Positions 1 through 31,016 of a stretch of DNA of 64,000 nt are shown here, in pieces. Location of the stretch: IMG/VR virus record IMGVR_UViG_3300012269_000002, positions 82,407 to 146,406 of that record, one strand, 5' to 3'. This DNA comes from a virus. Its lineage: Duplodnaviria; Heunggongvirae; Uroviricota; Caudoviricetes. Position numbers and translations under genes: made by a program. The notes beneath the pieces were generated by a model that was given only the letters and a program-made list of their open reading frames with translations, was not told the origin of the DNA and ran no database searches. Position 1 is the stretch's first letter; each line of letters starts with the position of its first letter.

Positions 1-615
1 GACCTACTGGCCCAATATGGTTCTTATAAGGACGTTAGAAAGCCCATATTCGATTGTAATGAAGACCAGATTAACGATGGCAATGCCATGATTGATGCTG
101 GCCATAATTTTATAAGATTGATGCATAGGCGAGGTGCGGTTTTATTGGATACGGAAATGGTGTTGGGTAGTAACGAATTAAAGTATACTGGGCAACCAGA
201 TAAGGTATGGATAATGTTCGATGGTGAGGGTAATTTGGGTTTCATAGTCACCGACTGGAAATCGAATAAGCCTAAAAATTTCGAGGTACATTCATATACG
301 GAAGCTATGTTACCTCCGTTTGAAGATGAAATGGATACGTCCTTAGGGCACTATAAAATACAATTACCACTATATGCCAGATTAATATTGGATATGTTAA
401 AAGGTACAAAATATGAGGATATTAAATTATTTGGTTGTATTATTGTTCATTTATCGGCTGAGGGAGTTTATAAAGAATTTAGAGTATCTAGGGATTTTAT
501 AAATATAGTGTTAACAATGCCACCATTACCTAGAATTAAAGAGGTGATGAAAAAGAAAAAAACTGATTTAATAGCCGAAGAAGATAGGGTTAAATTACTA
601 AAAAGTAGATTATAA
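1..615 (+). CDS. PD-(D/E)XK nuclease, RecB/Cas4-like (C-terminal part; ORF is open to window start)
   Basis: Frame 1 is open from nt 1. Motifs GQPDKVWIMFDGE, IVTDWKS and QLPLYARL resemble the RecB-family nuclease core (D..D/E.K and QLxxY). It sits directly upstream of the Mre11-like and Rad50-like genes. Confidence 0.5.
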   Translation, partial: DLLAQYGSYKDVRKPIFDCNEDQINDGNAMIDAGHNFIRLMHRRGAVLLDTEMVLGSNELKYTGQPDKVWIMFDGEGNLGFIVTDWKSNKPKNFEVHSYTEAMLPPFEDEMDTSLGHYKIQLPLYARLILDMLKGTKYEDIKLFGCIIVHLSAEGVYKEFRVSRDFINIVLTMPPLPRIKEVMKKKKTDLIAEEDRVKLLKSRL

Positions 616-1295
616 TGGTAAAAAAAATAATACATATGGCCGACATTCACATCAGAACATACAAAATGCATTCTGAATATGGTGAAGCCTTTAAGACAAC
701 ATTAAAGGAGATTAGGAAATTAGTCGAAGGTTATGAAAGAGATGAAATTAGAATAGTTATCGCTGGTGATTATGTTCACCAAAAAATAACCATATCTAAT
801 GAATTATTAATGCTAGGGACCTGGTTCCTTAGAAAGTTAGATAAAATAGCACCAGTTGTTATAATTGCTGGCAATCATGATTTGTTAGAAAATAACAAGG
901 ATAGGTTAGATAGTATCACACCTATGGTTAAGTTGTTACCTGATTGTAAAATACAATATTATAGAGATACTGGGTGTTTTGAAGACGGAAACATAGTTTG
1001 GTGTGTTTATTCTATTTTTGAGGAAAATAGTAGACCAGATATTGAATCCGCTAGACTTGAATTCGGTGATGATAAAACATATATCGGATTATATCATGCA
1101 CCATTAGCTGGCGCAACTACGGATATAGGTTATAAATTCGATGAAGCGCAATCATTGGAACATTTTGATGGTTGTGATATGGTTTTATTAGGGGATATTC
1201 ATAAAAGAAGTTGTTTTTATAATATTGAAAAAAAAGAAATTTATGAATCAGAATTAGAAAGGTATGAAAAAATGGGTTGGGTTATGGATGAATAA
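615..1295 (+). CDS. Mre11/SbcD-like calcineurin-type phosphoesterase (recombination nuclease subunit)
   Basis: Metallophosphoesterase motifs are present in order: ADIHI, GDYVH, GNHD, LYHAP, GDIHK. Its position next to the Rad50-like gene matches the T4 gp47/gp46 arrangement. Confidence 0.65.
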   Translation: MVKKIIHMADIHIRTYKMHSEYGEAFKTTLKEIRKLVEGYERDEIRIVIAGDYVHQKITISNELLMLGTWFLRKLDKIAPVVIIAGNHDLLENNKDRLDSITPMVKLLPDCKIQYYRDTGCFEDGNIVWCVYSIFEENSRPDIESARLEFGDDKTYIGLYHAPLAGATTDIGYKFDEAQSLEHFDGCDMVLLGDIHKRSCFYNIEKKEIYESELERYEKMGWVMDE

Positions 1296-1355
1296 CATCT
1301 TTTCACGTTTGTTGTTATATTTATTATTAAATAATAATACAACAAAATTTTAGAT

Positions 1356-2273
1356 ATGTATAAAAAATGTGAAAAATGTGGTAACGAATATAACGCTAAA
1401 CGAAAGGCACAAAAATATTGTACCAGAAAATGCCAATATAATAGTTATAAAAAAGATAAAATAGAGAGAGTTAAAACCGTATGTTTATTTTGTAAGGTTG
1501 AATTTAACACATTACCGAATAAACTTAAAACTGGTAAATCTAAATATTGTTCAAGAAAATGTAAGGATGAACATCAAAAAGAAGTTTACTTAAAAGAAGG
1601 TAATCCAGTTTATAATAATAAACATACTGATGAATGGAAGGTATGGAATTCGAATAGAATGAAGGGGTTATGGATTAATGAAAATCATAGAGATAATGTT
1701 AAATTAGGTCAAGAGCGATTTTTTGAAGAAAATGGATTTTGGTGTGGTTCTGATGAAAAATCGTTAGAGAAACGAGAAAATACTTTATTACGAAAATATG
1801 GTGTTAAAAATATATCAGAAATAGATATGTATAGAACTAAAGCTGATAATACTTGTATAAAAAAATATGGTAAAACTGCGTTTGAGTTATTATTAATGGC
1901 TAATAAAAACAATAAAGGGACTAGCATTGAAATTAAAATTGGTAAGTTATTAATGGAACAAAACATTAAATTTGAGACACAATTTGAAATTAGTTATAAT
2001 AAAATAAATTTTAGGTCTTATGATTTCTACTTAAATGAATTTAATTTATTAATTGAAGCCGATGGCGATTATTGGCATAGCAACCCAAATAAATATGATG
2101 ATAAAATATTAACAGAGGTTCAGAAAATAAATAAAAAAAATGATGAATTTAAAAATAAATTAGCTTATAAAAATGACTATAATTTGATTAGATTTTGCGA
2201 AACCGATATTAGAAAGAAAAATTTTAAATTCAAATTATTTAACGAAATTAAAAAATATGGAAAAAAAGATTAA
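1356..2273 (+). CDS. Homing-endonuclease-like protein: N-terminal CxxC zinc ribbons plus C-terminal Vsr/DUF559-like nuclease domain
   Basis: Repeated CxxC...C..KC motifs. The C-terminal IEADGDYWHSNP resembles the Vsr FxDGxFWH core. A paralogous nuclease domain occurs in ORF 3713. Confidence 0.45.
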   Translation: MYKKCEKCGNEYNAKRKAQKYCTRKCQYNSYKKDKIERVKTVCLFCKVEFNTLPNKLKTGKSKYCSRKCKDEHQKEVYLKEGNPVYNNKHTDEWKVWNSNRMKGLWINENHRDNVKLGQERFFEENGFWCGSDEKSLEKRENTLLRKYGVKNISEIDMYRTKADNTCIKKYGKTAFELLLMANKNNKGTSIEIKIGKLLMEQNIKFETQFEISYNKINFRSYDFYLNEFNLLIEADGDYWHSNPNKYDDKILTEVQKINKKNDEFKNKLAYKNDYNLIRFCETDIRKKNFKFKLFNEIKKYGKKD

Positions 2274-2484
2274 AATTAAAAAAATAGTCCCAATGTGTTT
2301 TAGCAGTAGCCTAATACAACAAAACTTTGGTGAGACTGTTAATAAACATGGGTTTTTATTCTGGGATGTTGAATCTAGGACATATACCGAGTGTGACATA
2401 GAGACCGATTTTGGGTTCTACCAATTTAAGATAAACTCGCTGGATGATTTAGATAATAATGTTGAAGTTTTAACAAATATATAA
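2257..2484 (+). CDS. hypothetical protein
   Basis: ORF in the dense + strand array; no recognisable motif. Confidence 0.3.
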   Translation: MEKKIKIKKIVPMCFSSSLIQQNFGETVNKHGFLFWDVESRTYTECDIETDFGFYQFKINSLDDLDNNVEVLTNI

Positions 2485-2485
2485 G

Positions 2486-2698
2486 ATGGAATTACACGAA
2501 TTAATAACATTTTTATTATCTTTGCCAGATGAATTTAAAAAATATAAAATAGTAAATGGTGAGTTTGGTAAAATCGATGAAGATTATTTCTATAGGGTTG
2601 ATAAACCTATATTAAGTATTGAAATTGATGAAAATACAAAAGAAATAGTGTTTTTAGATAAAACCAATGAAAAAATTAATAAAGATGGAGATACCTAA
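2486..2698 (+). CDS. hypothetical protein
   Basis: ORF in the + strand array. Confidence 0.3.
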   Translation: MELHELITFLLSLPDEFKKYKIVNGEFGKIDEDYFYRVDKPILSIEIDENTKEIVFLDKTNEKINKDGDT

Positions 2699-3080
2699 GG
2701 ACTTAAAAGATGAAATTTGGGAATATTGTAAAGTAAACGATATTCCGAATATTAGTGAATTTAATCTTAAAATAATTAAACAGGGGTTTACTGCTGAAAA
2801 ATACGGTAGCACACCATTTAAAACTAAAGAGGTTATTGTTGAAAAAGAAGTTATTGTCGAAAAAGAAGTTTATGTTGAAAAAGAAGTTTATGTTACCGAT
2901 GATGAAGCCAACACCAAATTAAATAGTCAAATAGTTGAATTACAGTTAAAGTTTGACAATCAAACCATTGATTTAGTCGAAATCACTAAAGAGCGAAATG
3001 TGTTAAAAACTAACGTTGAAGCACTTGAAAAAGAATTAAAGTTATTAAAGGATAAAAATAAAGATATTTATGGTGAATAA
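2667..3080 (+). CDS. hypothetical coiled-coil protein with internal KEV(I/Y)VE tandem repeats
   Basis: An 18-nt tandem repeat at 2829-2900 encodes (EKEVIV)x4. The C-terminal part is coiled-coil-like. Confidence 0.35.
   Translation: MKKLIKMEIPKDLKDEIWEYCKVNDIPNISEFNLKIIKQGFTAEKYGSTPFKTKEVIVEKEVIVEKEVYVEKEVYVTDDEANTKLNSQIVELQLKFDNQTIDLVEITKERNVLKTNVEALEKELKLLKDKNKDIYGE
2829..2900 (+). repeat. 18-nt tandem repeat x4 (gaagttattgttgaaaaa-like) inside a CDS
   Basis: Direct reading of the sequence. Confidence 0.8.
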
Positions 3081-3651
3081 TAATAGTATAGTCGTACCAG
3101 CAAATGGTAAGATAAAGGTATATTGGAATGATAAACCTGAACATTATTCTAGAGAAGCTAGAAATAAGGTTAGGAAATTCTTCTCAACGAAATATGGTAT
3201 TCCATCGCAAAATGTAAATGTGATATATCAACCCGTTAAAGTTAATAGGGATGGTGAGACTATACAAATAGAAGGTGGTAGTATAGACAATATAATGACC
3301 ATTAAATATCAAAGGGAATTATTTAAAGAATGGTTAAGTAGAGAAAATAAAGATGTTGATTTTAATAGATTAATTGATTTAGATAATAAAGTTAATGCTG
3401 AATTAAATATTGAATTAGAGGATAAATTACACAGAAAATATAAAATCAAATGGATGATGTTAAACAACTTCCTATCCTTTGGTGAAAATAATTTCTTTCC
3501 CGTTGACAGGTACCAGGGTTTAACCGTTGTTAACTCAGACCCAGCAAACCAAGGCGGAAAATGTATTAGGTACAACACTAAAATTAAAATTAAGTATAAT
3601 CTCGATGAAATAGAGAAAAAACTGGGTTTTATACCCGAAGAATTAAAATAA
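3070..3651 (+). CDS. Rad50/SbcC-like ATPase N-terminal fragment (deviant P-loop ...NQGGK) ending in a short split-intein N piece (CIRYNTKIKI..., 29 aa)
   Basis: The ORF ends ...PANQGGK|CIRYNTKIKIKYNLDEIEKKLGFIPEELK*. The downstream ORF 4728 starts with an intein C-terminal region followed by TTLTIDAIKFLFFG. Splicing would rebuild GGKTTL...AIxFxLFG, the Rad50/gp46 P-loop region. Confidence 0.5.
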   Translation: MVNNNSIVVPANGKIKVYWNDKPEHYSREARNKVRKFFSTKYGIPSQNVNVIYQPVKVNRDGETIQIEGGSIDNIMTIKYQRELFKEWLSRENKDVDFNRLIDLDNKVNAELNIELEDKLHRKYKIKWMMLNNFLSFGENNFFPVDRYQGLTVVNSDPANQGGKCIRYNTKIKIKYNLDEIEKKLGFIPEELK

Positions 3652-3712
3652 TTATTTAAACCTCTTTACTTCCCTGATTAAACGGTTATATTTATATATA
3701 AATAATTTAATT

Positions 3713-4735
3713 ATGGGAAAAGTATATAAATTTTCAAAAGTGGAGTTAAATGATATTGTTAAAATGTATGTTAATGAATTTCAATCAACAAATAATATCG
3801 CTAAAAAATATAATGTTGATACTGGTGTTATAATAAAAAGATTAAGGGATAATAAAATTAAAATTCCTAAGCGCTCTGCATATTCCAAAAAATATTGGTT
3901 AGAAAGGGGAATGGATGAAGATTTAATTGACCCTCATATAAAAACACTTAGACCCGTTAATCCCGAATACTGGTTTAAGTTAGGTTATTCAGAAAGTGAG
4001 GCTATTTTACAAATAGAAGGTCAAAAATTGGTTTCAGAAAGGGGCTGTATAGCTAGGTATGGAGAAATTGAGGGGAAGCGTATTTGGAGTGGAAGGGAAA
4101 TAAAAAGGAGTGAAAATAGTAAAAAGGGTAGTGCTAATTTACAATATTGGTTAAATAAAGGTTATTCTGAGGATGAAGCTAAAATAAAGCGTAGTGAAAG
4201 ACAATCTACATTCTCAAAAGAAATTTGTGTTAAAAAATATGGTGAGGTTGAAGGTTTAAAAATTTTCACCGAAAGACAGAATAAGTGGTCTAAATCTTTA
4301 ACCAATAATGGAAATCTTAAAATAGGGTATTCTAAGATATCACAAGATTTGTTTTATAAATTATTAAAACAATATAAAATAGAAGATAGGGATAAAATTA
4401 ATTTTGCCACACATAATAAAGAGTTTAAATTAAATAAATCTGAATCAGAAGGTGGGATTTGGATGTATGATTTTACTGATATCAAAAATAAAAAGATAAT
4501 CGAATATAATGGTGACCAATATCATGGAAACCCTAAAAAATATTTAGCAGAAGATTATCCACACCCTTTTAGAAAAACAATCACCGCACAAGAAATGTGG
4601 GATAAAGATAAACGTAAGTTAGATATTGCCAATAAAGAAGGTTTTGATGTGTTAGTTATTTGGGATTCAGAATATCGTTGGGGGAATAAAGAAAAAGTAA
4701 TAGATAAATGTAAAAAATTTTTAAAATATGGTTAA
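3713..4735 (+). CDS. Free-standing homing endonuclease (helix-turn-helix/NUMOD-like repeats plus Vsr/DUF559-like nuclease) located between the split intein halves
   Basis: Repeated YW..GYSE.EA helix motifs. C-terminal IIEYNGDQYHGNPKKY ... VLVIWDSEY matches the Vsr-like nuclease core shared with ORF 1356. It lies in a different frame from both flanking Rad50 pieces. Confidence 0.5.
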   Translation: MGKVYKFSKVELNDIVKMYVNEFQSTNNIAKKYNVDTGVIIKRLRDNKIKIPKRSAYSKKYWLERGMDEDLIDPHIKTLRPVNPEYWFKLGYSESEAILQIEGQKLVSERGCIARYGEIEGKRIWSGREIKRSENSKKGSANLQYWLNKGYSEDEAKIKRSERQSTFSKEICVKKYGEVEGLKIFTERQNKWSKSLTNNGNLKIGYSKISQDLFYKLLKQYKIEDRDKINFATHNKEFKLNKSESEGGIWMYDFTDIKNKKIIEYNGDQYHGNPKKYLAEDYPHPFRKTITAQEMWDKDKRKLDIANKEGFDVLVIWDSEYRWGNKEKVIDKCKKFLKYG

Positions 4736-6968
4736 AGAAATTGAGATAGGTAAATTAAATGAAATTTACAAAAAATATGGTGATTTAGGTTTTGAGGTGG
4801 ACACACCATATGGCTTTCATGATATTACATGGTGTGGTATAACCGAAGAAAATGCCGAGGTATATAGATGTGAACTAGAAAATGGTTTGTATGTTGAAGG
4901 TGCTGATTATCATAGATTAAAAAAAGAAGATGGGGAATTTGAAGTTTTAAAGAATATTGAAATCGGAACACCTATTCAAGTTAGGAATGGTATTTCAAAT
5001 GTTAAGTCAATTAAATTATTAAATGAGCGAGACACTTTATATGATATTCAAGTAGATAAAGTTCATCAGTATTATTCAAATGATATAGTATCACATAACA
5101 CGACCTTAACAATTGATGCAATTAAATTCTTATTTTTTGGTACAACAACCAAAACCGATAAGAATGAACAGGTATTCAATCAATTTAGTGAAAACAATGA
5201 CCTTATTCTTAGGGCCATGATTCAAATTGAAGGTGATGACGAGATAATTATAGAGCGTTTTTTAAAGAGGAAGGCTAAACGTAAGGGTGGTTGGACCATA
5301 GAGAATAAATTAAACTACTACATAATCTTACCAGATGGTGAAGAAGAGTTAATGAACGATGAAGATGCCACTAAAACGACAAATTTAATAAAAGAAACCG
5401 TTGGTACCGAAAGTGATTTTGATTTAGTGGTCCTAGCCACATCTAGAAATCTTGACACCCTTGTTGATTCTACATCTGGAGAAAGTGGTAAACTATTAAC
5501 TAGATTTATAGGTCTAGAGGTGATATCGTTGAAAGAAACCGCTGCCCGTAAGATGTATTCAACATTTTCAAAAACTATGAAGTCAAACATTTATGATGTT
5601 GAAACTTTAGACGAAGAAATTAGTGAGCATCAAGGTAAAATAGACGAGTTAAATAGTCAAAGAAAAATTTTAGATATTGAGCTAACTGACCAAAAGGAAA
5701 TTCAAGTTAAATTAAACGAAGAAAAAATTACCCTTATAAGTTCAAAGGAAAAAATAGATGCAAAAATATTAACACTAAACCCATCTAAATTGAATCAAGA
5801 GATTAGCACCATAACTCAAACGGGTGTTGGGTATAAAAATGAGATAGCTGAGTTAAAGGTCAAAATAAAAAAAATCGGTGATATAAATTTTGATGAGGAT
5901 AGAGATTTTGAACTAAGCAAAGAAAAAACATCCGTAAGTAGTGATATAGCTGTTAAAGAAGCTGAAATAATTAGATTAGACAAAGTAATCGATGATTTAA
6001 TAGCTGGTGGTATATGTCAGGCTTGTAACAGAGCCTTAGAGGACGTTGATAACACCGAACACATAAACACTCATAAATTACAAATAGGTGCATTAGGTGA
6101 AGCCTTAATGTCGTTAAGGGTTAAATTATCATCTATCAATATTGAAATTGAGAAATTAAGTGTTGCAAAGGTTAAAATTAATGAAAAAAATAAATTAGAA
6201 TTAAGAAAGGATAGGGTAGAAGTTGAAATTGGGTCATTAAGAAATTCACTTAAGACTAAAAATGACGACTTGAATAAGTACAATGAAAATGTAAGTGGTA
6301 TTGATAAAAATGCTAAACTTGATAGTGAAATAAGTATAGTAGACACTAAACTTATTGTTTGTGAACGTGAAAAAGAAAGCATCAATAATAAAATACAGTC
6401 AAATGGTATCCTAAAGGAAAGTAACAATAAGGATATTACCTTAAAAACGGATTTAATAAAAACCATAAATAAAGAGTTGGAGGTTGATAAAGTCTTTAGG
6501 GTGTATATTGATATGGTCGGTAAAAAGGGTATTAGTAAATTAGTACTTAGGTCGGTACTACCTATAATAAATAGTGAGATACAAAGACTACTTGACGATA
6601 TCACCGATTTTGATGTTGAAGTTTTTGTTGACGATAAGAATGAAGTTAGATATTTATTAATAAAGGATGGGGTTGAGAAACCATTAAAATCTGGTAGTGG
6701 CTTTGAATTGACTGCCGCAAGTATTGCGTTAAGATGTGTACTGGGTAAAATGTCAAATCTACCAAAACCTAACTTCATTGCATTTGATGAGGTCCTAGGT
6801 AGGGTTGCACCAGAGAATATTTCAGCCATGAGACCATTATTCGAAAGAATAACCGATATGTTCGATATAGTCTTCTTTATAACTCAGAATGATTTAGTTA
6901 AGGATTGGGCGAATCAAATTGTGACGGTAATAAAGGATAATAATATCTCTAAAATAAAAACTTTATAA
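4728..6968 (+). CDS. Split-intein C piece (about 124 aa, ends ...LYDIQVDKVHQYYSNDIVSHN) fused to the Rad50/SbcC-like ATPase body (coiled coil, CxxC zinc hook, signature and Walker B motifs)
   Basis: Intein blocks F/G are present (YDIxV...H.Y.SNDIVSHN followed by T). The extein has AIKFLFFG after the P-loop, a long coiled coil with CQAC at its centre, a C-terminal SGSGFELTAASIALR (signature-like) and FIAFDEV (Walker B/D-loop). Confidence 0.6.
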   Translation: MVKEIEIGKLNEIYKKYGDLGFEVDTPYGFHDITWCGITEENAEVYRCELENGLYVEGADYHRLKKEDGEFEVLKNIEIGTPIQVRNGISNVKSIKLLNERDTLYDIQVDKVHQYYSNDIVSHNTTLTIDAIKFLFFGTTTKTDKNEQVFNQFSENNDLILRAMIQIEGDDEIIIERFLKRKAKRKGGWTIENKLNYYIILPDGEEELMNDEDATKTTNLIKETVGTESDFDLVVLATSRNLDTLVDSTSGESGKLLTRFIGLEVISLKETAARKMYSTFSKTMKSNIYDVETLDEEISEHQGKIDELNSQRKILDIELTDQKEIQVKLNEEKITLISSKEKIDAKILTLNPSKLNQEISTITQTGVGYKNEIAELKVKIKKIGDINFDEDRDFELSKEKTSVSSDIAVKEAEIIRLDKVIDDLIAGGICQACNRALEDVDNTEHINTHKLQIGALGEALMSLRVKLSSINIEIEKLSVAKVKINEKNKLELRKDRVEVEIGSLRNSLKTKNDDLNKYNENVSGIDKNAKLDSEISIVDTKLIVCEREKESINNKIQSNGILKESNNKDITLKTDLIKTINKELEVDKVFRVYIDMVGKKGISKLVLRSVLPIINSEIQRLLDDITDFDVEVFVDDKNEVRYLLIKDGVEKPLKSGSGFELTAASIALRCVLGKMSNLPKPNFIAFDEVLGRVAPENISAMRPLFERITDMFDIVFFITQNDLVKDWANQIVTVIKDNNISKIKTL

Positions 6969-7036
6969 TAAAATATTAGTTTAAACATTAGAATATTCCT
7001 ATCTTTGTAGTATAATAATTAGAAAAATAAAAATAT

Positions 7037-7603
7037 ATGAATTTTAAAAACTATTGCGTAATAATCATGGGTGAAACCAAGGGGTGTAAAATCGAGATTG
7101 TAAAGATTGCCGAGGATACACCAAGATTTTTAGAAGCTAAGGGTGTGACTATTGCCACATTTTTAAGCGTTGCGGAGCCTGGTGAAATAACCGAATACTT
7201 TAAAACGTTTAATAGAAATTTCATGGTGTTCGATTTAAATAAAAATTCTTCTGGATTTAATTTAACTAATAAGCAGATACAGGAATTATTGTTCGGACAC
7301 TTGGATAATGAAGATAATGGAAGTATTGAGTTTAAAAATAAGACCAATGACTTAATCGATGATATTAATCGACAAAGTAGGGCCAATGCTACCAATAGGA
7401 TTAATAAACCCAAAAAAACTAAGATAAATCTAGAGAGTAGAATTGTTAAACCTAAGACACGTTATATAATATCCGAGGATATGACAAAATCGGAAATCAC
7501 TGAAATTATTAATCAAATACTCGATAAGGGTACTGATAATTTAACCAAATATGATAGAGAAACATTAGCAAAGTTATCAGAGCTTTCTGCACAGACAAAA
7601 TAA
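7037..7603 (+). CDS. hypothetical protein
   Basis: ORF with a plausible context; no motif recognised. Confidence 0.3.
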   Translation: MNFKNYCVIIMGETKGCKIEIVKIAEDTPRFLEAKGVTIATFLSVAEPGEITEYFKTFNRNFMVFDLNKNSSGFNLTNKQIQELLFGHLDNEDNGSIEFKNKTNDLIDDINRQSRANATNRINKPKKTKINLESRIVKPKTRYIISEDMTKSEITEIINQILDKGTDNLTKYDRETLAKLSELSAQTK

Positions 7604-7692
7604 CCTAAAATAGGTTAAAACATAAATTAAACGTTAAAAAACACCTTTTAAACGGTTTTTTTTAAAAATAACCCCTAAATTTAGTTTACTTT

Positions 7693-7725
7693 TGGGATAT
7701 ATTACGTATGTTATATATCCCATAA
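7693..7725. promoter_or_regulatory. 9-bp inverted repeat (gggatatat ... atatatccc) upstream of the sigma factor gene
   Basis: Perfect inverted repeat with a 10-nt spacer, about 35 nt upstream of the sigma gene start. Possible operator or regulatory hairpin. Confidence 0.3.
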
Positions 7726-7759
7726 GAAATAAATTATTTAGGGGCTTTATTGGTTATTT

Positions 7760-8590
7760 ATGAGTAAAAAATATATTAATTTTAATGACGATGAAAGTAT
7801 TTCAAAATACTTTAAAGACGTAAAGAAAACAAAATTACTAACTCCAGAAGAAGAAGTTGAGTTAGCGATACAAATAAAAAATGGTAGTCAAGTGGCAATT
7901 GACAAGTTGGTGAGTGCTAACTTAAAATTTGTTGTATCCGTTGCAAAAGAATACCAAGGACAAGGGTTACAATTAAGTGATTTAATTAGTGAAGGTAATC
8001 TTGGTATGGTGAAAGCGGCAAAACGCTATGACCATACTAGAGGGTTTCGTTTTATATCTTATGCTGTTTGGTGGATTAGACAATCCATAATGCAAAGTTT
8101 AAACGATAACTCCAGAACCATTAGATATCCATCTAATGTTATAAACAAAATATCATTAACAAAGAAAAAATTTGAGAAATTTGAGATTGACAATTGCAGA
8201 CAGGCCGATTTCACCGATTTTTATGATGACTCATTGGTTGATTTTAAATCCCTGGCCAAATGCTCATCATTTAATGAGATAATCAACGATTCTGGTAGTG
8301 AGATATCTGAATTGTTGATTGACAATGATTATGATTATGACGATATATTCAATGAGGGTGATGGTATCATAAAAAACGAACTAGTTAATATGTTAAGTGA
8401 ACTTTCCGACAGAGAGAGGGAAATAATTAATTGTTATTTTGGTATCGATAAGGATTATGATAGTATGACATTAGAAGTTATAGGTGAAAAATATAATCTA
8501 ACCAAGGAAAGAATACGCCAGATAAAGGAGAAGGCTCTAAGAAAACTTAGACATAATGCCGATAATTTATTCGATATAATAAATAAGTAA
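7760..8590 (+). CDS. RNA polymerase sigma-70 family sigma factor (phage-encoded)
   Basis: Region 2 has EGNLGMVKAAKRYD and YAVWWIRQSIMQS. Region 4 has LTKERIRQIKEKALRKLRH (HTH). Confidence 0.85.
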   Translation: MSKKYINFNDDESISKYFKDVKKTKLLTPEEEVELAIQIKNGSQVAIDKLVSANLKFVVSVAKEYQGQGLQLSDLISEGNLGMVKAAKRYDHTRGFRFISYAVWWIRQSIMQSLNDNSRTIRYPSNVINKISLTKKKFEKFEIDNCRQADFTDFYDDSLVDFKSLAKCSSFNEIINDSGSEISELLIDNDYDYDDIFNEGDGIIKNELVNMLSELSDREREIINCYFGIDKDYDSMTLEVIGEKYNLTKERIRQIKEKALRKLRHNADNLFDIINK

Positions 8591-8612
8591 TATTTATTAC
8601 TAAATTTAGAAC

Positions 8613-9854
8613 ATGAAAAAAGTATTATTATATTTAGTTTTATTTATGGCTGTTAGTATGGCATCCATAGTTGCGGTTGTTTCCGTTAGTGGATTATTAA
8701 AAGTTTTTACTGGTGCTGGTATGTTGGGGCTACTATTCTTCATTGCGATTGAGATTGCGAAGATAGTAGCCACTTCTGCGATACATACCTATTATAAAAA
8801 AATAGGTTTGTTGTATTCCTTGTTATTATCTATTGGTGTCGTAATATCCATGATAATAACCTCCGTTGGTATTTATGGGTTCTTAAGCACCTCATACCAA
8901 GAATCATATGCATCAATGATTGGTATAGACAACCAAATTGAGTTAATAGAGGGTAGTAAAACCCTCCTTATTGAATCTAAGGAAAATATCAATAAAGATA
9001 TTGAACTTAAAAGAGGTAGGATAACAAAAATATTGGAGGTTAGAGCGCAACAAGAAGATAGATTGGTTGCGTTATATGATAAAAATTGGGTTACCACAGC
9101 AAGAGGTACTGAAAAAATAATATCGGAGGCTAACGAAGATATAAAAACTATTGAAGATGATATAAATGAATTAATTAATAATTTAAACGTAATTAATGAT
9201 AGTTTAAATTCTAAATCATTGTCGGTAATCGAATTAAATCAAGATAATAAGGGAGCCGCAGAACTTAATTCATTAAAATACCTATCGAGTGTAACTGGTA
9301 AATCAATGGATGAGGTTATGAAATGGTTTATATTGTTATTAATAATAATAGGTGACCCTATGGCCGTATTATTGATTATAGTTTTTAATAAAATAGTTAA
9401 TAAAAAAGATGAGGGTGAACAAGTTGACCCTCAAGTAGAGAAGCCTGTTGGGGTCGAATATAACCCCATTACGGTAAGTGAGGGAGTAACTGAGGGAGTA
9501 ACTGAGGGAGTAACTGAGGGAGTAACTGAGGGAGCAACTGAGGCTGTAAATGATGCGGTAAATGATGCGGTAAATGATGCGGTAAATGATATAATATCCG
9601 AAGATGATTCCGAAGTTGAAATAGAAGATGATTTTACGGAAGAAACTACAGCAACCCCAACAGAGTTAGCTAATAACAATAGAATAACCAGGAATGACAT
9701 AAAAGAAATAAGGGAAAGAGGGTTTTCCGTAGATATTCCAGATAGAAATAACAATAAGATAGATAGAATCGGTGCCAATAAAGAAATAAGAGACGGTAAC
9801 GGTGATATTATCTATTACAAAAGAACTGGTGGTAATCCAAATGATAATAAATAA
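8613..9854 (+). CDS. membrane protein with coiled-coil and low-complexity VTEG/AVND repeat region
   Basis: N-terminal transmembrane helices, a second TM near residue 240, and tandem repeats encoded at 9476-9592. Confidence 0.4.
   Translation: MKKVLLYLVLFMAVSMASIVAVVSVSGLLKVFTGAGMLGLLFFIAIEIAKIVATSAIHTYYKKIGLLYSLLLSIGVVISMIITSVGIYGFLSTSYQESYASMIGIDNQIELIEGSKTLLIESKENINKDIELKRGRITKILEVRAQQEDRLVALYDKNWVTTARGTEKIISEANEDIKTIEDDINELINNLNVINDSLNSKSLSVIELNQDNKGAAELNSLKYLSSVTGKSMDEVMKWFILLLIIIGDPMAVLLIIVFNKIVNKKDEGEQVDPQVEKPVGVEYNPITVSEGVTEGVTEGVTEGVTEGATEAVNDAVNDAVNDAVNDIISEDDSEVEIEDDFTEETTATPTELANNNRITRNDIKEIRERGFSVDIPDRNNNKIDRIGANKEIRDGNGDIIYYKRTGGNPNDNK
9476..9592 (+). repeat. tandem 12-nt repeats (gagggagtaact x~4.5, then gatgcggtaaat x~3.5) inside a CDS
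   Basis: Direct reading. The repeats encode (VTEG)n(AVND)n. Confidence 0.8.
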
Positions 9855-10458
9855 GTCAGATTATAGATTAAGTGAATTAAATTTTGTAAAAAAAGAAACT
9901 AAAAAAAATAGAATAATTATAGGTAATTCATTCTCGACCAAAATGAATCATTTCATAGGTTGGACGACTAGGTGGTTTGGTAGTTACAATAAATGTGCGA
10001 ATTATACCGTTACGTTAAGTGGGGAAATTATAGAACACTTCCCACCTAAATATTATTCACAGTTTCTAAATAATTTAGAATTAAATAAAAAAAGTATATC
10101 GATAGTTTTAGAAAATGAGGGTTGGTTAGTGGATAACCCACTGAATAGTGGGCAATATGTTAACTATATTGGTGAAGTTTATGGTAGGGACGATAATGTG
10201 GTAGATAAAAAATGGAGGAATAAAAGATTTTGGGCACCGTACAGTATACCACAACTTGATTCAGCAACACTATTGGTTAGAAAATTATGTACGGACTTTA
10301 ATATACCAATAAATGTAATACCACATAATATAAGTTTCGATGAGCCCGATAGGTTTAGTGGGGTGTTATATAAGAGTAATTTTAAAAAATATTACTCAGA
10401 TGTAAGTCCAGCTTGGGATTTTATAAAATTTAAAGATAAAGTCGAAAATGATAAATAA
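9841..10458 (+). CDS. PGRP/amidase_2-fold protein (N-acetylmuramoyl-L-alanine amidase-like, catalytic residues uncertain)
   Basis: Weak similarity to the amidase_2 layout (SIVLENEGW, YIGEVYG...). The expected Zn-binding His in the first motif is not evident. Start chosen at the internal Met after the upstream stop. Confidence 0.35.
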   Translation: MIINKSDYRLSELNFVKKETKKNRIIIGNSFSTKMNHFIGWTTRWFGSYNKCANYTVTLSGEIIEHFPPKYYSQFLNNLELNKKSISIVLENEGWLVDNPLNSGQYVNYIGEVYGRDDNVVDKKWRNKRFWAPYSIPQLDSATLLVRKLCTDFNIPINVIPHNISFDEPDRFSGVLYKSNFKKYYSDVSPAWDFIKFKDKVENDK

Positions 10459-10507
10459 AATATTATGTTTTTACTTTACGTAATATTTATTAATAAATTC
10501 AAATACA

Positions 10508-10912
10508 ATGAGTAAAGAACATGAAGTAACCAAAACAATGCTAAATATCATAAGAGATAATGAAGCCAAGCGTAGAACATCCATTAACGAAAATGATAAT
10601 GATATAATCGATTTAACTGGTGAAGAATTAAAGGGTGAAGAAAAGAAGTTCATGGAGATAGTATATTCTGGGGTTAAATTCGGACCATATAAAATATACC
10701 CGAACAGTAGTAATGTTGTTTTCAGTGGAGAAATGGATAATGGTATCGAGTGGCAATTTTCAAAAGTTGATGGGGTTTATATTAACCTTCCAAACATTGA
10801 ATTGACCGATGAAATTGTTGAGTTAACTAAAAAATTAAAAGCTTATTTCGAAAATTGGGATATCGAATGGGGTAAAAAATTAAATACCGAATATAAATCA
10901 AATGATAGATAA
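10508..10912 (+). CDS. hypothetical protein
   Basis: ORF. Confidence 0.3.
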   Translation: MSKEHEVTKTMLNIIRDNEAKRRTSINENDNDIIDLTGEELKGEEKKFMEIVYSGVKFGPYKIYPNSSNVVFSGEMDNGIEWQFSKVDGVYINLPNIELTDEIVELTKKLKAYFENWDIEWGKKLNTEYKSNDR

Positions 10913-11267
10913 GGATAAAAATAAAAATATATTAATACTCGTACTAATTTTATTTTTAGTGGGGTTTATTGTATTTGGTGGTAGAACTATAAAGTTAAAG
11001 ACAAGTGAATTAAAAGAGCTTAATTTAAAAAATGGTTTATTAGTTAAAAAAAACGATAGTATTATTTCCATCAACATCAACTTAGATAAGGAGATACAAT
11101 CGATTAATAAAGTTATAAAGGTTAAGGAAGATTCATTAACACTCGTAACAAATAAAATAAAAATCTTAGAAAATGGAAAAAATAAAGTGGGTTCTTTTGT
11201 TGGTGGTCTTGATATTAACGGTGTCGATAGGGCACTCACAGAATATCTCGAAACAAGACAGGATTAG
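10902..11267 (+). CDS. hypothetical membrane-anchored protein
   Basis: N-terminal TM helix. Its 3' end overlaps the next ORF and may be read-through. Confidence 0.25.
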   Translation: MIDKDKNKNILILVLILFLVGFIVFGGRTIKLKTSELKELNLKNGLLVKKNDSIISININLDKEIQSINKVIKVKEDSLTLVTNKIKILENGKNKVGSFVGGLDINGVDRALTEYLETRQD

Positions 11268-11643
11268 TATATTTATAAATTCAGAAGGTGACACCATCAC
11301 CAGCATGTATTTTAGTGATAGTAAAATTTTATTGGAGGATGTTTTAAAATACAAGTTTGCCGATAGTATGATTGTGGAGTATAAAAAAAGTAGTCTTATT
11401 AATAAAGATATTATCTCCAATCAAAAAAGTAAAATAAACCTACTTAAAACCAAAAACAACAATCTAGATAAGGTAAATACCAATCTAAATCTATTGGTTA
11501 CCAATAAGGAAGAAGAGTTTATTATTTTAAAAACTACAATCGAGGCGCAAAGGAAAGAAATAAAACGTCAAAAGAGACAAAAAGTTTTCGGATTTATAGG
11601 TTCTGGTGTACTGATTGTTACTGGTGTACTAATATCTAACTAA
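11173..11643 (+). CDS. hypothetical secreted/membrane coiled-coil protein (signal peptide, C-terminal TM)
   Basis: MEKIKWVLLLVVLILTVSIGHSQ is a signal-like N-terminus. There is a C-terminal hydrophobic segment. Confidence 0.35.
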   Translation: MEKIKWVLLLVVLILTVSIGHSQNISKQDRISIFINSEGDTITSMYFSDSKILLEDVLKYKFADSMIVEYKKSSLINKDIISNQKSKINLLKTKNNNLDKVNTNLNLLVTNKEEEFIILKTTIEAQRKEIKRQKRQKVFGFIGSGVLIVTGVLISN

Positions 11644-11871
11644 ATGAAAATATCTTACAAGGGTGATTCGGAGGGGTTAAGAATATATTTTAACGGTATA
11701 TTACAGTTAAGAATCCCAAGAAATAAAGATGTAATACTTCATAGTTGGTTAAAAACGGACACTAAATTATTTTATATAGAAATAAAATTTCCGAATAATT
11801 CAATTATAGTTGAATATGAAGATAAAAATACTTGGGAAGAAGTATTAAGGTTATTAAATAAAAATATATGA
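11644..11871 (+). CDS. hypothetical protein
   Basis: ORF. Confidence 0.3.
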   Translation: MKISYKGDSEGLRIYFNGILQLRIPRNKDVILHSWLKTDTKLFYIEIKFPNNSIIVEYEDKNTWEEVLRLLNKNI

Positions 11872-12269
11872 GGTTACCAAAAAATATAGAATTAAAGCAA
11901 CAAAATAGGTGGGTTATTGAATTTAAAAATAACAAAGAAATAAAAGAGTGGTATTTAATTTCAGCTGAAAGACCAAAGTTTAAAAGTTACTTTATTAATT
12001 TCTTAGGTTATAAAACATATGATATAGATTTAGTATTTAGAGAATCCGTTGATATTAAATTATCAAAAATACTATTAGACTTATTTAAGTATAATACCAA
12101 AATCGATTTTGATATCATAATGTTAGACGGTTATGGTGAACCATTAGAAAAATGGGTTATAGAGAAAAGTGTGATTACTCAGATAGATTTTGGCTCAGTA
12201 AATTATTTTAATGATGATGCAACTGAAATAACAGCCACCTTTAGACCTAAGAGAATCAAAATAGAGTAA
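11868..12269 (+). CDS. hypothetical protein
   Basis: ORF followed by a weak terminator-like hairpin. Confidence 0.3.
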   Translation: MRLPKNIELKQQNRWVIEFKNNKEIKEWYLISAERPKFKSYFINFLGYKTYDIDLVFRESVDIKLSKILLDLFKYNTKIDFDIIMLDGYGEPLEKWVIEKSVITQIDFGSVNYFNDDATEITATFRPKRIKIE

Positions 12270-29996: not shown

Positions 29997-31016
29997 ATGG
30001 AAAAAATTAATTTCAATAAAGTACCTAACTTAATAGGTCTTAGTGGTAAGGTGGGTTCTGGAAAGGATACCGTAGAAAGAATTATACAAGCATTCATGAC
30101 CAGGGGTAGGTATCCAAACACGAATGAAATACATGGTAGTTTAGGATATGAAATGTTAAATGACCTTGAATTAATAAAAAGAGTAGTCAATGGGTCGGAG
30201 TGGTATGGTGAAGAGACATACTTAAATAAAAAATTCGCAGATAAACTTAAAGACATTGCTTGCCTTATATTAGGGTGTACTAGAAAAAGGTTAGAGGATA
30301 GAGAATTTAAGGAGAAGGAATTGGCTGATATTTGGGATGTTTTTAAAATTGGCCACACCAATGAAATAAATGACGGCACCTCTTTGGTCGATAGTGGGAT
30401 ATTTGTTAGTGAAAAAGAAGCCAACAAATTTATTAAAAAACATAAATTAAATAACACTACACACGTATATAGGGTAAAAATGACCCCAAGGTTATTATTA
30501 CAGTTATTGGGTACTGAATGTGGTAGGGAAATCATTCACCCAAATATTTGGGTAAATAGTTTATTCAGTGATTTTACACCAATACATACCGACCACGCAA
30601 TAGGTGGCTTTGAATACCCTAGGTGGATTATAACCGATGTTAGGTTTAATAACGAAGTTGACACCATAGAAAAATTTAAGGGTGTTAGAATTAGGGTAAA
30701 TAGAAGCAAAAGAACTTCTGAGGAATGGCAAAAACAATTCCCTAAAATTATTATAATGGACCCAGACGGTTGGGATAGAAAAAACTTTACATACTCTTGG
30801 GGTGAAGAATTAATAACACTAAGTGAATTTAATAATAGAGTATTTTCCAGCACATGCATTCAACAATTAGGTGATTTTAACAGTAAACCACATAAATCCG
30901 AAATAGAGTTGGATAAGTATAAAAAATGGGATTATGTCATTGAAAATGATGGTACGTTATTAGATTTAGTTAAAAAAGTTTATGATATGTTATTGGATTT
31001 AGGTAAAAATACTTGA
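29997..31016 (+). CDS. deoxynucleoside monophosphate kinase-like P-loop protein (T4 gp1-like N-terminal domain) with C-terminal extension
   Basis: VPNLIGLSGKVGSGKDTVERII resembles the T4 gp1 dNMP kinase motif LIFLSGVKRSGKDT. Confidence 0.5.
   Translation: MEKINFNKVPNLIGLSGKVGSGKDTVERIIQAFMTRGRYPNTNEIHGSLGYEMLNDLELIKRVVNGSEWYGEETYLNKKFADKLKDIACLILGCTRKRLEDREFKEKELADIWDVFKIGHTNEINDGTSLVDSGIFVSEKEANKFIKKHKLNNTTHVYRVKMTPRLLLQLLGTECGREIIHPNIWVNSLFSDFTPIHTDHAIGGFEYPRWIITDVRFNNEVDTIEKFKGVRIRVNRSKRTSEEWQKQFPKIIIMDPDGWDRKNFTYSWGEELITLSEFNNRVFSSTCIQQLGDFNSKPHKSEIELDKYKKWDYVIENDGTLLDLVKKVYDMLLDLGKNT

Follow-up and report, generated by a model that had tools for sequence, protein, structure and literature searches.

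The 64,000-nucleotide (nt) window of the IMG/VR record IMGVR_UViG_3300012269_000002 contains a Rad50/SbcC-like ATPase gene that is encoded in two pieces, each fused to one part of an intein, with a free-standing homing-endonuclease gene between them. This locus is very likely the fractured gene of a large uncultured marine phage, in which a mini-intein occupies the P-loop and has itself been split by a mobile endonuclease cassette. All coordinates given below are positions in the window, and all listed open reading frames (ORFs) lie on the + strand.

Three ORFs in three different frames (1/2/0) make up the locus, namely 3070-3651, 3713-4735, and 4728-6968. The first of these, the N piece, encodes 193 amino acids (aa). 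Its N-extein of 164 aa (3070..3561) aligns to residues 1-163 of uninterrupted homologues and consists of a family-specific N-terminal domain (residues 1 to ~120) and, in residues 124-164, the strand that opens the Rad50 fold, followed by Walker A as far as GGK, with PANQGGK at 3541-3561 (tail VVNSDPANQGGK). The N-terminal intein part, IntN, comprises 29 codons (CIRYNTKIKIKYNLDEIEKKLGFIPEELK, CIRYNT...KLGFIPEELK) and a TAA stop codon at 3649-3651. It spans 3562..3651 and contains block A only, with Cys1 and Thr6. A spacer of 61 nt (3652..3712), which holds a conserved promoter-like element and the motif TATAAATA, precedes the endonuclease gene (3713..4735). The encoded protein of 340 aa has a helix-turn-helix (HTH) motif N-terminally, helical repeats, and a Vsr-like nuclease domain C-terminally (residues ~229-340 of the ORF, 4397-4732). 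The C piece (4728-6968, 746 aa) has its own ATG at 4728 and overlaps the endonuclease stop by 8 nt (ATGGTTAA). Its first 124 codons form the C-terminal intein part, IntC (4728..5099), with block B (ADYH, 4902-4913), block F (LYDIQVD, 5037-5057), and block G (VSHN, 5088-5099). They end in LYDIQVDKVHQYYSNDIVSHN and are followed by TTLTIDAIKFLFFG. The C-extein (5100..6968) encodes 622 aa and a stop, and its first residue, Thr+1, completes the Walker A motif (GGK-T). It further contains a coiled coil, the zinc hook CQAC (6015-6026), the signature-like sequence KSGSGFE (6687-6707), the Walker B motif FIAFDEV (6774-6794), and FFITQN (6873-6890). Each intein part is thus located on a separate ORF and is fused to one extein. 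The initial annotation had described the three ORFs, the 29-aa tail and the 124-aa head, the endonuclease gene in a third frame at the split site, and the CxxC hook, signature motif, and Walker B of the C piece, and all of these were located in the sequence as described.

The two presumed exteins were joined in silico to a spliced protein of 786 aa, which was searched against a protein collection. More than 1000 homologues were found, most of them 785-793 aa long, with 99-100% query coverage and 58-78% identity. The closest homologue, P0001, is uninterrupted and at the predicted junction reads NPANQGGK directly followed by TTLTIDAIKYLFFG (GGK, then TTLTIDA). DNA homology to the corresponding empty-site locus L001 stops between 3561 and 3562 and restarts at ~5096-5100, and the segment inserted relative to L001 is 3562-5099, i.e., 1538 bp from the first to the last intein codon. 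The intein insertion site is the Walker A P-loop, between Lys and Thr of GGK-T. Joining the two pieces raises the score against phrog_77, an SbcC-like phage family, from 111.7 to 144 bits, with the match now reaching into the N piece. The earlier proposal that the joined exteins restore a P-loop is borne out by P0001, which reads GGK-TTL at the same point. The N piece aligns within the Rad50-like family, and the uninterrupted homologue looked for in related phages exists at L001.

Contiguous versions of the intein are known as well. P0006 (935 aa, locus L004) carries a contiguous intein of 153 aa at the same codon as the window intein, and 18 further contiguous inteins are all located in Rad50/gp46-like proteins between G-x-G-K and S/T, beginning with C and ending with H-N. 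Related genomes show three allelic states of the site: empty, occupied by a contiguous mini-intein, and occupied by a split intein plus endonuclease. The order N piece, endonuclease, C piece is found in seven loci from different samples (window, L007, L009-L013), and the layout also occurs in the independent assemblies L007, L008, and L009-L013 (JGI, ENA/Tara, Logan) at 50-100% identity. Since the insertion boundaries coincide with the homology break to the exact codon and the layout is seen in independent assemblies, the arrangement is not due to chance, and the fractured arrangement is confirmed as real. Mis-joining of an endonuclease gene into the Rad50 gene during assembly is conceivable for a window that probably derives from a metagenome, but it is exceedingly improbable given this recurrence and boundaries that are codon-exact relative to the intein motifs.

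The host protein is recognisable as Rad50-like on several grounds. The spliced protein matches phrog_77 with an E-value of 1.4e-41, and the C piece alone matches from residue 125. In the PDB, the extein family profile matches Rad50 only, via two independent regions. The ATPase lobe with signature and Walker B matches 3qkr, 1ii8, and 1f2t (E ~1e-4) over KSGSGFE...FDEV, while the zinc hook matches 1l8d (5.6e-4) and 6zff (1.1e-3), its C469 and C472 being invariant in the family. The Walker A motif of the spliced protein is S-D-P-A-N-Q-G-G-K-T and conforms to the invariant family form S-x-P-x-N-Q-G-G-K-T. Measured against the canonical GxxGxGK[ST], it retains the GK[ST] core together with the Asn and has Pro at the position of the first Gly. 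The His of the H-loop is Gln throughout the family (FFITQN aligned to Rad50 vSHde). The N-terminal domain of ~120 aa has no detectable homologue, which is again a family-wide trait. The odd N-terminus and the deviant Walker A that had been singled out as unusual are therefore both present, but they are not special to this locus, being invariant family-wide and unrelated to the intein.

The Pfam family Intein_splicing (PF14890) matches the C piece with an E-value of 3e-5 and the fused IntN+IntC with 3.4e-7. All 16 family members are matched at E <= 0.01, the best at 3.7e-10. The AlphaFold2 (AF2) model of the fused parts shows a HINT fold with a pLDDT of 97.2 and a pTM of 0.89. In a Foldseek search with this model, the best match is VidaL (6vgv; E 3.8e-10, TM 0.79/0.84, rmsd 2.7 Å), and the top 50 matches are inteins or HINT domains without exception. 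The family profile matches only inteins in the PDB, including VidaL (6.9e-15), gp41-1 (8e-13), CatC (8e-12), and NrdJ-1 (9e-12). The similarity of the 124 residues to Hint domains, claimed from the letters alone, is hence substantiated by profile and by fold, and the Pfam match, though below the gathering score, agrees with it. Across 16 aligned full inteins at the Rad50 site, C1, T6, H91 (block B), D135 (block F), and S151-H152-N153 are invariant. At +1, the window has Thr, and relatives have Ser or Thr.

In the HINT model, IntN supplies the strand 7-11 and the helix 14-21, and the break falls in the loop between this helix and the strand 33-35. CatC aligns from approximately profile position 35. 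Block A is encoded in the 29-aa IntN, and the block B His as well as blocks F and G are encoded in IntC. As the block B His belongs to IntC, the split is atypical. The element thus belongs to the class-1 inteins and is split atypically, into an IntN of 29 aa and an IntC of 124 aa. This agrees with the short-N/long-C split that had been proposed, the best structural match, VidaL, being an atypically split intein itself.

The intein lineage is large and constrained. An exhaustive search with IntC yielded ~400 related representatives, with split forms making up ~55 clusters among the top 150. The N-piece search yielded ~69 clusters of diverged fragments of 188-206 aa. In 63 of the 64 N fragments with an intein N-part, IntN is exactly 29 aa long, and it nearly always ends in KLGFLPDELK; the extein part of the same fragments has diverged to ~50% identity. 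In a codon-by-codon comparison of six loci, pN/pS is 0.115 for the last 10 codons of IntN (pS 0.66), 0.38 for the whole of IntN, 0.29 for the last 40 codons of IntC, and 0.42-0.48 for flanking extein codons. These values indicate that both intein halves are under purifying selection, which appears strong for the length and sequence of IntN, with synonymous sites near saturation.

The endonuclease belongs to a family of 635 homologues of ~337 aa and was assigned to phrog_22677. Its AF2 model (pLDDT 84) begins with an HTH, continues with helical repeats, and ends in an alpha/beta domain. For the C-terminal domain, Foldseek gives 1vsr with a probability of 1.00 (E 0.023), 1cw0_A with a probability of 1.00, and 3r3p (I-Bth0305I) with a probability of 0.97 (TMt 0.61, 23-27% identity). 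E. coli Vsr and I-Bth0305I are the only specific structural matches of this domain, and they hold at domain level only. D253, E264, H271, and D299 are invariant across 28 endonuclease sequences, with a spacing identical to that of Vsr D51/F62/H69/D97 (PMC2677866). From this identical spacing we infer that these residues correspond to the Vsr active site. E264, at the place of Vsr F62, is the Glu that Dassa et al. report to be characteristic of the homing endonucleases in this family. The window ORF itself has no Pfam match, and the Vsr and DUF559 thresholds are unmet. Relatives show weak matches to DUF559 (6 of 28, best E 3e-3) and MTES_1575 (5 of 28). The proposed Vsr-like nature of the endonuclease accordingly holds for fold and domain (1vsr, 1cw0, I-Bth0305I) and fails at the level of Pfam thresholds.

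A further reading places the removal of the interruption at the RNA level, with the endonuclease ORF carried by a group I or group II intron or passed over by translational bypassing, and the protein being translated in one piece. Phage genes are frequent intron hosts. Vsr-like endonucleases are also known in group I introns (PMC2677866). Against this, Rfam gave no family at E <= 1 in 1-9000 on both strands, and relatives hold a contiguous in-frame intein at the same site. Furthermore, the sequence on both sides of the endonuclease ORF codes for a HINT domain that is conserved, folds correctly, and is selected at the protein level, which is unexpected for intron RNA. Removal at the RNA level is thus very improbable.

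The spacer between IntN and the endonuclease gene measures 54-75 nt across loci. In the window, 3665-3695 reads TTTACT-N17-TATATTTAT, a sigma-70-like match, and the element TTTAC(C/T)-N17-TATATTTAT is kept across six diverged loci. The motif TATAAATA lies at 3697-3704, 8 nt ahead of the endonuclease ATG, and is conserved in only three of seven loci. Promoter-like sites in 2400-7300 occur in the number expected by chance, and a terminator scan of the same range found none. TTTAC-N17-TATATTTAT has two exact matches in the window, at 3665-3695 and 46202-46232, and may represent a phage promoter class. The second copy precedes an ordinary ORF of 259 aa (46254-47033), and both copies share an AAACG-TTATATTTAT core. 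The overlap of endonuclease and IntC is 8-11 nt in the window, L007, L012, and L013, and is absent in L009-L011, where gaps of 21 to 508 nt are found. In the Tara locus L009, an extra ORF of 162 aa (5033-5521) lies between endonuclease and C piece, which indicates that the cassette can gather further cargo.

Several observations weigh against an active split intein with a mobile endonuclease. The window intein scores 30.6 bits compared with a Pfam gathering threshold of 35.8, and in block B the window has Ala instead of Thr (ADYH), this position being Ala or Ser in the family. Whole-model E-values of the Vsr fold match are weak (0.02-0.4), and PDB searches with the profile of the 28 endonuclease sequences and with phmmer found nothing. 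A hairpin upstream of the endonuclease is unsupported (z = -1.56, consensus fold of 7 bp, no covariation). The Rad50-like family is aberrant, with Pro in Walker A and Gln in the H-loop, and its ATPase chemistry is not certain. Finally, we infer both splicing and endonuclease activity, as well as the target of the endonuclease and the promoter function of the spacer element.

The block B substitution, the low Pfam score, and the indirect case for splicing would also suit a decayed or inactive intein. The fragments would then be pseudogene pieces, or partners held together non-covalently by the intein halves with no peptide bond formed, comparable to NrdA of phage Aeh1, which is split without an intein. 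The adjacent Mre11-like gene, which is split without an intein and presumably works as two chains, fits such a scenario as well. Both versions are nonetheless improbable. The catalytic residues are invariant in split and contiguous copies, purifying selection strongly constrains how long IntN is and what sequence it has, and the ORFs are intact in seven loci and ~69 clusters. In addition, non-covalent assembly leaves ~150 intein residues within the nucleotide-binding loop. A working loop needs ligation, because the break falls between Lys and Thr of the P-loop. Judging from the sequence, trans-splicing is very probably active.

The following mechanism is proposed for the split intein. The gene carries a class-1 mini-intein in Walker A, and behind block A a mobile cassette divides the intein coding sequence. 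This cassette supplies a stop codon, the promoter-like spacer, the endonuclease gene, and a new start codon overlapping the endonuclease stop. Two polypeptides are predicted, an N-extein of 164 aa that ends in the 29-aa IntN, and a 124-aa IntC that leads into the C-extein of 622 aa. The short IntN would dock on the nearly complete IntC to form a single HINT domain, whereupon trans-splicing would proceed via Cys1, the block B His, the block F Asp, the terminal His-Asn, and Thr+1. The product would be a Rad50-like protein of 786 aa with an intact P-loop, acting as partner of the adjacent Mre11/SbcD-like nuclease. The endonuclease presumably cuts intein-less alleles of co-infecting relatives, and the whole cassette would then spread by recombinational repair.

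Comparison with L007 is informative with regard to mobility. The cassette and ~170 bp upstream differ at 5 of 1717 positions, whereas the adjoining extein DNA shows 320 differences in 1904 positions (p = 6e-87 vs the cassette). The near-identical tract covers ~170 bp upstream of the intein and ~11 bp downstream, an asymmetry from which the endonuclease would be expected to cut upstream of the insertion point. Farther out, the two loci are ~99.6-100% identical over most of 12 kb; the 9-22% difference, in window 2679-3393 and 5111-6299, is confined to the extein and upstream DNA next to the cassette. These divergent flanks may go back to separate homing events accompanied by co-conversion. The window intein is 62-71% identical to the inteins of L009-L013, the exteins of which are 33-57% identical. 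It is 55% identical to the contiguous L004 intein, where the extein is 63-78% identical. Because the intein tree disagrees with the extein tree, the cassette moves horizontally, and these comparisons show that split intein and endonuclease spread as one unit. The near-identical cassette in diverged flanks and the discordance of intein and extein also point, indirectly, to homing, in which the endonuclease would cleave the intein-less allele. An origin of the window split intein in situ from an L004-like contiguous intein was considered and rejected, the inteins being 55% and the exteins 63-78% identical.

The Rad50 C half lies downstream of the conserved promoter-like element of the cassette and would be translationally coupled to the endonuclease. 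It was therefore considered whether the cassette is more than a parasite and has been co-opted as a timing switch, with active Mre11-Rad50 being assembled by trans-splicing only when the cassette promoter fires. This reading is rather unlikely. The genes for both subunits harbour related endonucleases in the same genome, and Mre11-Rad50 is the complex responsible for resecting the double-strand breaks that such endonucleases make.

The second of these subunits is the Mre11/SbcD-like gene at 615..2484 (+), which is split without an intein into an N piece (615-1295), an endonuclease gene (1356-2273), and a C piece (2257-2484). The pieces 615-1295 and 2257-2484 match Pfam Metallophos (1.7e-11) and phrog_100 (2e-16) and align to intact homologues of 270-274 aa. 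A neighbour of Mre11/SbcD type is syntenic in all related loci. The gene breaks directly after GDIHKR. Its N piece bears a non-homologous tail of 28 aa, and its C piece has a head of ~15 aa and overlaps the endonuclease by 17 nt. This second endonuclease (305 aa) shows weak matches to Vsr, PvuRts1I_N, MTES_1575, and DUF7487, and the two window endonucleases are related (E 4e-5, 28% identical). The Mre11-like gene is intact in L001, L004, L010, L011, and L013, and split in L007, L009, and L012. The endonuclease in the L007 split is shorter N-terminally, with 207 instead of 305 aa. An ORF of 70 aa at 2486-2698 is present in the window and absent from the otherwise near-identical L007.

Further insertions are suggested elsewhere in the neighbourhood. 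The upstream exonuclease-like gene (phrog_298, window 1-615) has an in-frame insertion of ~0.8-1 kb in relatives, namely in L007 (2123-3121; 649 aa, faint Hom_end), L004 (4721-5516; 576 aa), and L009 (591 aa). It lacks the insertion in the window (between 261 and 265) and in L001 (317 aa). A third intein polymorphism in this gene cluster, of the LAGLIDADG type, is the probable explanation. A dNMP-kinase-like ORF (29997-31016) has a phrog_139 match that is broken by a phrog_11725 segment (residues 233-289), which may be another insertion. A membrane-protein-like ORF at 8613-9854 has four tandem copies of the peptide VTEG followed by four of AVND, close to its C-terminal third. The window also encodes functions typical of phages, namely an RNA ligase, a DNA ligase, a dNMP kinase, a tRNA nucleotidyltransferase, and a sigma factor, all on one strand.

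Related contigs reach more than 300 kb and stem mostly from marine samples. Megablast of window 1-12000 against the INPHARED phages gave no match, and tblastn with the uninterrupted homologue against the phage collection found only ~25% identity, in huge-phage metagenome-assembled genomes (MAGs). The cultured phages of this collection lack this intein in Rad50/gp46, the window intein being matched in them only under terminase genes. Two candidate carriers were rejected: in the cyanophages Syn19 and Syn2, where a match starts inside IntC, there is an in-frame upstream run instead, and in cyanophage ACG-2014d, which has two gp46 features, a C-terminal frameshift. Among P0271-P0390 there are T4-like gp46 homologues (phrog_77 E ~1e-133, 43% identical to cyanophage gp46) that carry the same intein at profile position 334, both atypically split and contiguous (P0277 and P0290 were examined). 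Terminase and DnaB-like helicase genes likewise include related proteins that begin with IntC. P0261 (1017 aa) and P0297 (1211 aa) have Mre11-like N-termini (MIRIAHLSDIHIRN... in P0261) and Rad50-like C-terminal parts and may be Mre11-Rad50 fusions. Both carry the same intein, contiguous and in the P-loop, with the linkers FGFLPNELK and IGFVPKELK, which are homologous to the IntN tail of the window.

The atypical split is regarded as rare among inteins. To our knowledge, only a handful of atypically split inteins with a peptide-sized IntN have been characterised, and such inteins are wanted for semi-synthesis and labelling. In the lineage described here, the atypical split is the dominant form of a large, diverged, and strongly constrained group of marine phage inteins. 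The Rad50 P-loop site may be the largest natural reservoir of atypically split inteins, with dozens of orthogonal pairs having a 29-aa IntN, a reading that is more likely than the timing switch. For protein engineering, many candidate pairs are available with Cys1, Thr or Ser at +1, a 29-aa IntN, a near-invariant KLGFLPDELK tail, and a confidently modelled fold.

Fractured genes were defined by Dassa et al. in 2009 (NAR 37:2560; PMC2677866), including a family of Vsr-like endonucleases for which an extra Glu is typical. In the described cases, the endonuclease overlaps the downstream intein part by 6-69 bp, and control elements (hairpin, TATAAATA) are located upstream. The hosts comprise gp41, IMPDH, DnaE, NrdA, NrdJ, ligase, terminase, and one unknown. 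The window locus is alike in that a phage gene of DNA metabolism contains a split intein with a Vsr-like ORF of the same orientation between the halves, and, for the window itself, in the overlap of endonuclease and intein (8 nt) and in the position of TATAAATA upstream of the endonuclease start, two features that vary among the related loci; the upstream hairpin is unsupported. The initial annotation's assignment to the fractured genes is thereby upheld, with the order of the free-standing endonuclease between intein halves being kept in L007 and L009-L013. The locus differs in its host, which is Rad50/SbcC-like and interrupted at GK-T of Walker A; Rad50, SbcC, and gp46 are unmentioned in PMC2677866. 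Moreover, all but one of the Dassa inteins are split canonically, whereas the window intein is split after block A. The paper includes a terminase locus "fractured at an unusual point", with a C part of 122 residues in which motif N1 alone is missing. It also describes an SbcD-like gene that has no intein and is divided by a Vsr-like ORF (25-aa tail, 9-aa head), and the Mre11-like split at 615-2484 reproduces this layout almost exactly. The three allelic states and the varying overlap of endonuclease and IntC constitute a natural data set for the 2009 gene-breaking model.

By profile and by fold, the closest solved relatives of the window intein are atypically split inteins, several of which are already in established use as tools (AceL and GOS TerL, Cat, VidaL, PolB16 OarG). 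Their IntN/IntC lengths in aa are 25/104 for AceL-TerL, 37/115 for GOS-TerL, 30/104 for Cat, and 15/168 for PolB16 OarG (PMC10189870, PMC11766414). Cat (6dsl), which is the consensus of the atypical TerL inteins, VidaL (6vgv), TerL, and PolB16 share with the window intein a short IntN with block A and a long IntC with blocks B, F, and G. The C fragment of Cat begins within ~5 residues of the IntC start in the profile alignment, and Cys1 is shared with AceL-TerL. The window intein differs in its host gene and in the +1 residue, which is Thr (Ser in many relatives) and not Cys. VidaL is ~24% identical to the window intein, which is known from sequence and model. In metagenomes, the lineage at the Rad50 site seems to be far better represented than the named atypical inteins. 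The split inteins gp41-1 (6qaz) and NrdJ-1 (8ubs), which come from fractured genes of marine phages, have related HINT domains and share the C-terminal IntC motif ...Y(Y/A)N(D/G)I(L/V)(S/T)HN; their split is canonical instead, with an IntN of ~88-105 aa and an IntC of ~33-54 aa.

The C-terminal domain of the endonuclease has the same fold as I-Bth0305I (3r3p) and E. coli Vsr (1vsr, 1cw0), at 13-27% identity. I-Bth0305I is intron-encoded and located in recA, whereas the window endonuclease is free-standing between intein halves, and its N-terminal HTH and helical-repeat DNA-binding region differs from both proteins. With T4 gp46/gp47, SbcCD, and Rad50-Mre11, the extein shares the signature/Walker B lobe and the CxxC hook, as well as phrog_77 with T4-like gp46, and it likewise adjoins a gene for a calcineurin-type phosphoesterase. 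It differs from T4 gp46, SbcC, and Rad50 by ~120 extra N-terminal residues, a variant Walker A, and the Gln in the H-loop. No report of an intein in Rad50, SbcC, gp46, or Mre11 was found in the open-access literature, a scope that excludes InBase and similar registries. The arrangement itself, i.e., fractured gene, Vsr-like endonuclease, atypical split, and split SbcD, is already described, and the concept is unchanged. The new aspects are the host protein and insertion site, with GK-T of the Rad50/SbcC Walker A joining the hosts and insertion sites of fractured genes, and a large, constrained lineage of atypically split inteins.

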